Part shown: one piece after another, positions 15,001-18,000 of the stretch | Layout: every line of letters starts with the position of its first letter | Numbering within the stretch: position 1 is the stretch's first letter | DNA from: Escherichia coli | Lineage (GTDB): Bacteria; Pseudomonadota; Gammaproteobacteria; Enterobacterales; Enterobacteriaceae | Length of the DNA stretch: 64,000 nucleotides | NCBI RefSeq assembly: GCF_001677475.2 | Contig: NZ_CP012498.1 | Strand: one strand, 5' to 3' | Position numbers: made by a program

Positions 15001-18000
15001 GGGTCGCTGACATTGAGAACGACAAGTTCAATCCTGTGTGTAATCACCAGCTTCATTGCTGCCGGACAAAATCAAATCTCAATCACTGAACTGGTTATCC
15101 TGTCCGGTATTAGTCGACAGAGGAGTCTGAAGTCCAATGGAACGAAAACGTACGTTAGTGAAGTAACTGTCTGATATATCAAAACATAATGGACATAGAA
15201 AACGCCATCAAAACGGTGTCTTTTTAATCGAAAATTGGCACTTAACGGACGACATTGTCTACTAATCGATTTTATCCTCTTACCGTACGTTTTCGTACGG
15301 TTGGCCCTCAAACCCCGATGAACGCTATGGTGAAGGGGGGCGCCGTATTAGCTTACTTGGACAGCATGTACTTTATGAAGTGAATGATGAGGCCAGTCGT
15401 GTCAATATCCTGGCGGTTGTAGGCCAGCGTCAGAATCCCCGATTCATTCTTTGAGTGTCCGGATTGGAACTCCATCTTCAGAGAATCGATCAACGTTCTT
15501 TAGCTCCTTCCACTAACAGCCGACCTATCTCAAACACCGCAGCTGACCGTCCCGACTTCACCGCTTCGGCTTTCTGTCCCTCAACAAACCAGTTATTACC
15601 GTCCGTTCGGACCAACTCAAACATCCATGACATATCGTAAACGTGTTCCGGGATCAGCGACCCTTCCCCGGCCAGAATACCCGCCGTTATGGAGTGGTTG
15701 CCCCCGTGCACAAAGCCAATACGCCAGGGCAACCACAGGTCAACATAGTGGTTGTTTTTATCTTGCCTCCACGGCTTCCCCTTATGGGTTCCAATGCGTG
15801 AAACGTTGTCGATATAGCGTGGTAGGCTCCAAGGCCACGGCAGCACTATGTCGCTTGCCAGCGACAACGGATAATCAGCGCCGTTCATCTCACACTCTTT
15901 CATCTTTTCGTAATATTGTATTTGGGTAAGTCCCTTAAAGAAGAACTCCTGCGGGGTCATATCCGGGCGGGCATCTGTTCCCTCCTCAGCTACCGCCAGC
16001 AAGAAATCACTCTGTACTGGCCGCACGATAGCGCGAATGAGATCTGGTAGCGCCTTAACGGGTAGTTTCTCTGCCACAGAAAGCAGATGATTGAAGCGTT
16101 TTTTTTCATTGGCTATAGTTGCTTTATCTTTCTTGTTTCGGTTCCAGAACATCACTGTCTGTAGCCCTCCTTATCGTGATCAGGATGATGGTTTTCATTC
16201 TAATGCTGTAGTAGTTTCACGTCACGCGCACGTGCATATTCTTCGAAAGCTTCGGCGTTAGCCGGTCAACCAGTTCCGCCTGGTAGGGGTCAGTTTGGAT
16301 ATGGGAAAATTTTGTACGTTAAGCGCATTATTTAACCGTAACGGATTGATTTTGTGTCAACGGCTATCGCTTTTAAATTATCGCCATTGCGGTATTGCAT
16401 TTAGGTTATCCGATTGAGTTCAACTCCCCTGAAAACAGCGTATAGCGGAGGAGTACACCCTATCGCGATAGGTAAGCCTGTTCAAAAAAACAGGCTTACC
16501 GTACAATAATTCTCTATATCCAAACTGACCCCATATACTGTGTATATACGTGGTAAATTAGGCATAAGTAGAGCCACTTATTTTAGGATGCGCGAACAAA
16601 TGAAGTTAAAGAATTGGCTTATTCCACTTATTGTCTGGATGTTTATTTATATTGGTATAAGGCTCGTATTTGATGGTGGGTGTAATGATGGGTGGAGCTC
16701 ATCATCAATTGGTCGGATGGGGGCTTGCTCACATCATGGTGGTGTCAACCATACATCCGGCTTTATAGCATTTATTTTTGCCACCATTGTGTCAGGTTGG
16801 TTACTTTTTAAAATGAATGAGGTTGAGTCAAGGAAAATAAGAAAATCCTATATCGTTGAATCAAGTTTTTTCGAAATGGAATATATTAGCTCTCCATTTA
16901 ACCCATCTGATTCTTTAAAAATTAATTCCAGTGAAATTAATTTTACTCATAGGAGCGGGTGGGATGGTATGCCTGATGAATCCATTAGAGTTGAATCATC
17001 GTATGATTTTTAAAAGATATAATTCTCCTTTCAGAGAAAATAAAAAGTGATATTGAGATGTTTAGCAGAGAAAACTCCGGTTTTGGGTGTGATGGCGAAA
17101 TAGTTTGTATTAGGTTTTTTGACGGTACTAAAGAGGTAAAATTTCAGACTCCGATGATATTTATTAATTTTGAAAATATATCAGACTCAACCCTCAAGCT
17201 GATGACTACCCTTAGGCGAAAACTGAAATTCGACTTCTAGGGAGCCGCTTGGAATTCGGAAAATAAACCACGTTAAGACTAGGTTTTAGCCAAAGGATTT
17301 TTAGGAATCGCCAGAATGGCGGGACAACAGCGGTTTTGGTGTCCGAAATCGTACGTTTATGGTGCAGTAAGTGAGAATTTATTCGTACCAGCTATGGATA
17401 CGTTACGGGCAGTGATTTTTCGCGCCAGACAGCTATTTCTTTGCTGTCCGGTTAACGGCGGTCTTACGTACAGGTTGCCGAACGCAAAATTTGTGCATTC
17501 CGGAAATTTCGGCGGTTGCGGCTTGGAACCCCTTTTATTGTTACAGGAGGCCTGGGCTTGTCTGCTACCGGTCCGGACGGGAGGGACACCGGGAATTTGA
17601 ATCCGGTTAACTGAGCCGGACATACGGTAAATAAGGAATGCAGGCAGAACGGGAAGCACTGTAGGATGAGACAGTAGTCTGGAAGTACATCAAAATTGCA
17701 ACAATAGTACGCTATTGCGTGACATAGATTCGTGACGTATAGTTACTGCATCTTATTTGTATATAACCACCATCAGGTACAAAATTATGTCTCCCGCACA
17801 AGCTAAACAAAAGCAGCATGAACGCTACGAAGCCGTAGCGGTGCAGGTTTTGCGTGGTCGTGCCGGTTACAAGCCTGCCGTAAAAAGCCGTTTCAGTAAG
17901 TCAGCCAATAGCAAATTCTCCCATACTATCGCTTTTGCCTGATCATGAACTTTGAGGCACAATAAACCATCATTCGCTGATGGTTTTTTTATGCCAGTTC

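Follow-up and report, generated by a model that had tools for sequence, protein, structure and literature searches.

Features of the locus

We analysed a 64,000-nucleotide stretch of Escherichia coli DNA (contig NZ_CP012498.1 of assembly GCF_001677475.2), referred to here as the window, in which two Tn3-derived miniature elements (TIMEs), at 15122-15316 (195 bp, plus strand) and 16286-16532 (247 bp, minus strand), lie on either side of an intact gene of the fipA type (15490-16155, minus strand). Both elements had been located in an original prediction made from the DNA alone, and a repeat finder (arms at 15122-15157/15281-15316 and 16286-16333/16485-16532) together with reference alignments confirmed their positions. 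The same prediction regarded the arrangement as a composite-like unit that could be mobilised. The combined results presented below argue, with a probability that we put at about 0.8, that the locus is a patchwork junction in a mosaic F-type plasmid region of E. coli, where known TIMEs mark the mosaic joints, and not a cassette.

The left element is a deletion variant of IS101 and is designated IS101v. Compared to the 209-bp IS101 reference (PMC13367494 Table S2), it gave an end-to-end BLAST alignment (E 1.4e-64) with 183 identical bases over 209 columns, 14 of them gap columns (183 of the 195 element bases), and showed two internal deletions, one of 13 bp and one of 1 bp. Its terminal inverted repeats (IRs), the left one (IRL) at 15122-15159 and the right one (IRR) at 15279-15316, matched each other at 28 of 38 positions in the 38-bp comparison. 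The identity of these repeats was 35/38 and 37/38 with the IRs of IS101, and 32-34/38 with the IRs of Tn1000 extracted from plasmid F. Its IRL begins with GGAG, not with the GGGG of the family, and ends in ...ACGTTAGT; the terminal GGGG is mutated at this end of the element and intact at the other. Among the 13 deleted bases is TTTCAGACG, which matches a half-site (TTTCGGACG) in the res region of Tn1000 of plasmid F at 8 of 9 positions, suggesting that the res function of IS101v may have been lost through the deletion. A mapping of the IS101 res subsites onto the Tn1000 res was also tried; just short patches aligned, and we make no firm claim about res. The flanks of IS101v (ACAGA/GATGA) show no 5-bp target duplication. 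In PLSDB (72,556 plasmids), 391 records covered at least 80% of the IS101-type element.

The right element, designated MITESen1v, lies in reverse orientation and, at 247 bp, is a deletion variant of MITESen1. The latter, a TIME of 256 bp, was originally discovered on an IncX1 plasmid of Salmonella (ISfinder). Reverse-complemented MITESen1v aligned end to end with the 256-bp ISfinder sequence quoted in PMC13367494 Table S2 (E 2.3e-68; 219 identical bases, 258 alignment columns, 245 aligned bases), from which it differs by an 11-bp internal deletion and about 10% substitutions. Its arms on the minus strand, IRL at 16495-16532 and IRR at 16286-16323, matched each other at 32/38 and were identical to the MITESen1 reference at 38/38 and 35/38, respectively. 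They also shared 34-35 of 38 bases with the terminal repeat of an autonomous, MITESen1-like transposon on NZ_CP080123.1 (89400-92384), where the repeat lies next to a gene for a Tn3-family transposase of 994 aa. Both termini of MITESen1v carry an intact GGGG, so the GGGG ends that had been foreseen for both elements were recovered here but not at the left end of IS101v. The flanks TGGTA/ATATA again lack a 5-bp target duplication, in agreement with the earlier observation that none is evident at the four ends. At least 80% of a MITESen1-type element was covered in 1,401 PLSDB records; the exact 247-bp MITESen1v was not found in PLSDB (best match 94.2%), and an exact-pattern scan of GTDB representative genomes for it gave zero matches.

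TIMEs are recognised by Tn3-family-related IRs of about 38 bp, a length of 50-500 bp, the lack of a transposase gene, 5- or 6-bp target repeats and mobilisation in trans. Both elements possess such IRs, which align with the repeats of Tn1000, IS101, MITESen1 and NZ_CP080123.1, and at 195 and 247 bp they leave no room for a transposase; neither window copy is bordered by 5-6 bp target repeats. By alignment, both are published, named Tn3-derived TIMEs, as had been proposed, but they belong to two different families, IS101 and MITESen1. Mobility at the family level is real, as seen for an IS101 copy in the 4.3-kb plasmid pCAV1321-4310 that is bordered by ATAAT/ATAAT. Since the IS101 family does make target repeats, the window copies therefore lost them or arrived by recombination.

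The DNA between the two elements is a piece of IncFII plasmid backbone. Window positions 15317-16273 (957 bp) correspond to NZ_CP047713.1 2343-3299 with 99.2% identity, and the matching backbone stretch is present in hundreds of plasmids. In the annotation of NZ_CP047713.1, repA is followed by an antitoxin-like gene and a RelE/ParE toxin gene (2181-2480); next come a DUF6710 gene (2516-3178), which is read from the opposite strand, and unannotated DNA. As the window match starts at 2343, IS101v adjoins the last 138 of the 300 bp of the toxin gene, a remnant at 15317-15454 (plus strand) that is devoid of the first 162 bp and whose antitoxin gene is also missing. The fipA-type gene encodes 221 aa from a GTG start, or 220 aa from the ATG at 16152, one codon later, which is the RefSeq start. 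The strong ribosome-binding site attributed to this open reading frame (ORF) was verified as AAGGAGG, 10 nt before the GTG. The retained upstream region of the gene (16156-16273, minus strand) holds this ribosome-binding site, a promoter-like site at 16225-16197 and a relic of the 3' end of a relaxase gene, and the IncFII homology ends at 16273. Between this point and MITESen1v lies a 12-bp filler, TTCCGCCTGGTA (16274-16285); its final 4 bp, GGTA, are likewise found in front of MITESen1 in NZ_CP042297.1. The bracketed DNA thus contains the predicted ORF and, in addition, the toxin remnant and the relaxase relic, which had not been named. No Rfam family was detected at the locus when 12-22 kb of the window were scanned.

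A third TIME-like element, 256 bp long, is situated directly upstream of the IncFII fipA-type gene in NZ_CP047713.1 (3299-3554), and further copies were seen in NZ_JBSTRB010000003.1 (3957-4213) and OGWT01000566.1 (about 5625-5880). It is not present in the window, and it starts at the exact base (NZ_CP047713.1 3299) where the IncFII homology of the window ends. The IRs, GGGGTTTGAGGCCCAACCGTACGAGATCGTACGCTAAG and GGGGTTTGAAGCCCAATGGAGCGGAAACGTACGCTAAG, enclose a core that bears no relation to IS101 or MITESen1. The element occurs in 166 PLSDB plasmids at a coverage of at least 80%, is unannotated in the records inspected and does not figure among the TIMEs listed in PMC13367494; it may be an undescribed TIME.

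The intact gene is a homologue of fipA

The gene between the TIMEs had been described as one of unknown function. pKM101 derives from plasmid R46, in which a gene for a DUF6710 protein separates nuc from the relaxase gene. This protein, named Fip in UniRef (Q56054), was 50% identical to the window protein over 200 residues (E 6e-76), and the window protein also matched Pfam DUF6710 with an E of 2.7e-48. On this similarity, ORF 15490-16155 is a homologue of the genetically characterised fipA of pKM101/R46. PMC5696584, citing Winans and Walker (1985) and Santini and Stanisich (1998), presents pKM101 FipA as a genetically defined fertility inhibition function that blocks IncP transfer via the TraG coupling protein. 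By analogy, the product of the window gene most likely hinders the conjugative transfer of co-resident IncP-type plasmids via their coupling protein.

In an IncN-like transfer region, a homologue with 87% identity directly follows the gene of a TrwC-type relaxase. The fipA locus of the window has no relaxase gene; upstream of fipA we found about 90 bp of a decayed MOBF relaxase 3' end (about 16156-16244, minus strand), with 86.6% nucleotide identity to the JGI contig Ga0257031_101015 up to 16244. In translation this relic reads ...FEEYARARDVKLLQH, a stop and NENHHPDHDKEGYRQ, compared to a relaxase C-terminus of ...YEEYERARDVELPQHEHENHQHDYDKEGYGL followed by a stop. The ribosome-binding site of the fipA-type gene is thus a conserved coupling signal within the C-terminal codons of the relaxase. 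The relic upstream marks the IncFII fipA copy as a fragment and shows that the gene was at some time detached from a transfer operon of the IncN-like type.

In Ga0257031_101015, a 120-aa gene with Pfam TnpC_reg (3159-3521) comes after the IncN-like fipA and overlaps it. The IncFII and window version lacks this gene, and homology resumes just past it (window 15515-15474). The fipA-type gene of OGWT01000566.1 (about 4842-5507), on a contig otherwise 98% identical, has an N-terminus that is not cleanly translatable, and a frameshift or an assembly error may account for this; the gene may be decaying in that lineage. About 2,500 PLSDB records match the region around the fipA-type gene. TIME activity has been tied to fipA in IncN plasmids too, by disruption and not by flanking (PMC13367494 Table S1).

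The two junctions have separate histories

To the left of IS101v lies the second copy of a helix-turn-helix (HTH) gene, represented by its upstream region and 5' part (14929-15121, plus strand) and cut off by the element. The intact copy lies at about 4424-4717, and the duplicated segment 4400-4604 matches 14929-15122 as two direct repeats (4400-4460/14929-14989 and 4472-4604/14990-15122), in accordance with the predicted placement of the left TIME at the breakpoint of a duplicated segment (15121/15122). In translation, the HTH copy at 4.4-4.7 kb continues as ...GISRQSVKRAIQTLEQAG..., and the second copy runs into IS101v. A simple insertion or inversion at the HTH gene predicts its 3' part elsewhere in the window; when this missing part was sought across the window, the only match was at the intact copy (4605-4780), and the model was rejected. 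The HTH pseudogene that precedes the toxin-antitoxin pair of NZ_CP047713.1 displayed no nucleotide or protein similarity to the window HTH gene. The left flank of IS101v is therefore unrelated DNA, and a deletion adjacent to IS101v between the HTH gene and relE in an IncFII ancestor was dropped as an explanation. Two truncated, unrelated genes meet at IS101v without a duplication, which argues for recombination between two copies of the element that had entered at different sites or for a rearrangement beside IS101v.

Each junction of the TIME pair was found separately in other replicons. CP056610.1 and two sister plasmids match window 12126-15401. This match takes in the left flank, IS101v and 85 bp of the toxin remnant; past it the plasmids diverge and carry no fipA. 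The metagenome contig OGWT01000566.1 matches 10904-16273 with an identical 195-bp element, and past 16273 it carries the 256-bp IncFII TIME and IncFII backbone in place of MITESen1. On the other side, MITESen1 together with its right flank (16282-16853) occurs in NZ_CP042297.1 and in at least 13 further E. coli records, and the left flank of MITESen1 in these records corresponds to window 14180. The two junctions are thereby shown to have separate histories. Recombination, which the original prediction had allowed for, is the likelier origin. At the IncFII rep/parM joint of other plasmids, IS101, MITESen1 and the 256-bp TIME occur single, side by side or truncating each other, and never with duplications.

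Two arrangements of this kind were recorded individually. In NZ_AP027194.1 (3417-3776), at the rep/parM joint, IS101 is followed after 2 bp by a 5'-truncated MITESen1; in NZ_JBSTRB010000003.1 (3957-4393), the 256-bp TIME directly abuts an IS101 copy that has lost its first 29 bp. The window also contains solo Tn3-type terminal repeats at 17240-17277 (plus strand) and 9406-9444 (minus strand), which resemble those of IMU, TIME244 and Tn1721 and face away from each other. Many plasmids become homologous to the window exactly at 17239-17240, and for NZ_CP042297.1 the exact starting point of homology is 9444, so both repeats also mark mosaic junctions. We further considered a derivation of NZ_CP042297.1 from a window-like state by an IR-precise deletion. 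The endpoint is 4 bp outside the MITESen1 repeat, with GGTA kept, and a transposase-made adjacent deletion thus does not fit neatly.

Mobility in trans

According to PMC13367494 and PMC4133298, IS101 carries a res site and is mobilised by Tn1000, as shown experimentally, and in PMC4133298 it is described as dependent on the Tn1000 transposase. As established for the families, each TIME is inert unless a matching transposase acts in trans: a Tn1000-type enzyme is required for IS101, and a cognate Tn3-family enzyme like that in NZ_CP080123.1 is the candidate for MITESen1. A tblastn search with Tn3-family TnpA revealed no similarity across the 64-kb window.

Origin of the arrangement

To assess the composite arrangement, we compared the locus with described composite transposons bounded by TIMEs (TIME-COMPs). 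In every TIME-COMP of PMC13367494 Table 1, the two ends are copies of a single TIME, an arrangement that lets one transposase act on both outer ends, and 5-6 bp repeats border most of the listed units (PMC13367494, PMC4133298). In the window, one IS101 and one MITESen1 copy take the place of two copies of the same TIME, and their outer terminal repeats (IS101v IRL and MITESen1v IRL) share 18 of 38 bases. The outermost flanks, ACAGA and ATATA, form no direct repeat. No record covering at least 80% of window 14900-16800 was detected among the 72,556 plasmids of PLSDB or 5,426 complete E. coli genomes, so that the unit was not seen at different sites or replicons in these collections, and an exact 27-bp pattern across the junction of the fipA side with MITESen1 had zero matches in JGI metagenomes. 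The search of other replicons yielded no evidence that the segment is mobile, and by the refuting condition given with the original prediction the proposal of a mobilisable TIME-gene-TIME unit did not hold.

How the arrangement arose can be explained in several ways. That the repeats are chance similarities or ordinary hairpins, with no remnants of transposable elements at the locus, might be suggested by a loose Tn3-type pattern, GGGG(N26)ACGNTA with one mismatch, which was found 13 times in the window with 10.1 expected and is thus not enriched. The significance of the elements consequently rests on their full-length identity to known elements. Both show full-length alignments with published elements (E values of about 1e-64 or lower), and 391 and 1,401 plasmid records contain them at 80% coverage or more; on these alignments the chance reading is already refuted, and we give it practically no weight. 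A hybrid TIME-COMP, in which IS101v and MITESen1v are the ends of a composite that carries the fipA-type gene and can be moved by a Tn3-family transposase in trans, has in its favour that two TIMEs do bracket an intact gene, that MITESen1v has intact termini, and that TIME-COMPs of 1.3-11 kb are known, including accepted ones that lack direct repeats (IMU, PMC13367494). It is already disfavoured, and we consider it very improbable, since the ends are of different families, with IS101 tied to the Tn1000 transposase (PMC4133298); the outer IS101v end begins with GGAG; there is neither a flanking duplication nor a transposase gene in the window; and the DNA between the ends is collinear plasmid backbone, cut within a gene at its edge. 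The absence of the unit and of its right junction from the collections searched speaks against it as well. In addition, movement of a composite preserves the inner flanks and replaces the outer ones; MITESen1 shows the opposite, with a conserved outer and a variable inner flank, which argues against movement as a unit. A broader proposal also seems improbable: that the TIMEs by the IncFII replicon act as portable recombination or transposition ends that shuffle backbone modules, that a TIME-associated event moved fipA from the IncN-like operon into IncF, and that the IS101/MITESen1 pair could still be mobilised as a hybrid cassette with both transposases.

A further reading concerns the right junction and its age. 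The junction could be the older state, in which the fipA fragment continued as ...CAACCAG joined to TTCCGCCTGGTA... and the 256-bp TIME was inserted later at exactly this point. MITESen1 would then be an old neighbour and not a replacement, and a TIME-free upstream continuation of fipA into ...CAACCAGTTCCGCCTGGTA would be implied. The IncFII homology does end exactly at the outer base of the repeat of the 256-bp TIME, as at an insertion site, and GGTA precedes MITESen1 in another lineage too. The IncFII TIME is, however, bordered by AACCA/ACACC and not by a matching 5-bp duplication; OGWT01000566.1 joins the IS101v junction with the IncFII TIME, which makes an extra recombination necessary anyway; and the TTCCGCCTGGTA continuation is found in no other record of PLSDB, the complete E. 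coli genomes or the JGI metagenomes. We regard both this order of events and the implied role of MITESen1 as unlikely. The break at 16273 fits either a later insertion of the IncFII TIME or a break at its end.

Several observations weigh against the patchwork junction that we favour. The 12-bp filler stays unexplained, and the IncFII homology stops precisely where a Tn3-type terminal repeat of the IncFII plasmid begins, an exact stop that hints at a transposase-made break and not at general recombination. With intact termini in MITESen1v and one intact end in IS101v, the elements might, on sequence alone, be mobilised, and a transposase could be supplied by DNA of the cell outside the 64 kb of the replicon that are visible. 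The missing target duplications are weak evidence, given that 5 of 6 sampled TIME copies are devoid of them, and they are commonly missing for MITESen1 copies (PMC13367494 Fig. S4). Finally, the assigned FipA function is an inference from 50% identity. We nevertheless prefer the patchwork junction at the probability given above. In this reconstruction, recombination between TIME copies, homologous or at the IS101 res site, would have made the duplication-less junctions, or deletions beside TIME copies might have done so, and TIMEs accumulate at the joint that adjoins the IncFII replicon.

Other features of the window

At 14084-14674 (plus strand), a 196-aa ORF resembles EspK/GogB-family type III secretion effectors over their C-terminal half only (E about 1e-27, far under the cut-offs of the family), and inverted partial duplicates of it are located at 2823-3636. 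It represents a fragment of an effector gene, and the window has two copies of it, oppositely oriented. The Rfam group II intron domain RF00029 was detected at 21114-21190 (minus strand; 65.4 bits, E 2e-11), and a related 84-nt repeat, 86% identical, occurs 8.2 kb away at 29336-29419. This similarity suggests two group II intron copies or remnants. An 826-bp inverted repeat (429-1254/7024-7849, 98% identity) surrounds about 5.8 kb that includes the first HTH copy, and its arms are probably insertion-sequence copies in opposite orientation. Inside this repeat pair, an IncFII oriR-like sequence at 4794-5042 matches NZ_CP047713.1 1453-1710.

Significance and comparison with known systems

Descriptions already exist of the element families, of how they move and of the gene family, and the finding is ordinary. 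It opens no new mechanistic question, and its value lies in correct annotation: once both elements are named, what looked like a novel cassette can be read as a history of rearrangement. TIMEs were unannotated in every record inspected and are missed by annotation pipelines, and such plasmid junctions routinely go unexplained. Recognising the DUF6710 genes of IncFII plasmids as fipA homologues links them to a gene that plasmids use to block the conjugation of rivals, and fipA-type genes in clinically dominant IncF plasmids could affect the spread of co-resident broad-host-range plasmids.

Compared to IS101, also called TIME-IS101, the 209-bp element of pSC101, IS101v shows a full-length match, Tn1000-like termini and no coding capacity, and it differs by its 13-bp and 1-bp deletions, its GGAG left end and the lack of a target duplication. 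MITESen1v resembles MITESen1 over its whole length in inverted orientation, most closely in the IRL (38/38) and the IRR (35/38), and departs from it by the 11-bp deletion and about 10% substitutions. The likeness of the fipA-type gene product to FipA (Fip) of the IncN plasmids pKM101 and R46 consists in the shared DUF6710 family, the 50% identity and the relic of the relaxase-fipA gene order. With TIME-COMPs the locus shares two TIMEs around short plasmid DNA with an intact gene, and its 1.4 kb are within the known size range. In contrast to TIME-COMPs, the pair belongs to different families, is free of direct repeats and has no second copy among the records searched; its cargo is a fertility-inhibition gene with gene fragments and not a resistance gene; and the conserved flank of the window MITESen1 speaks against movement as a unit.

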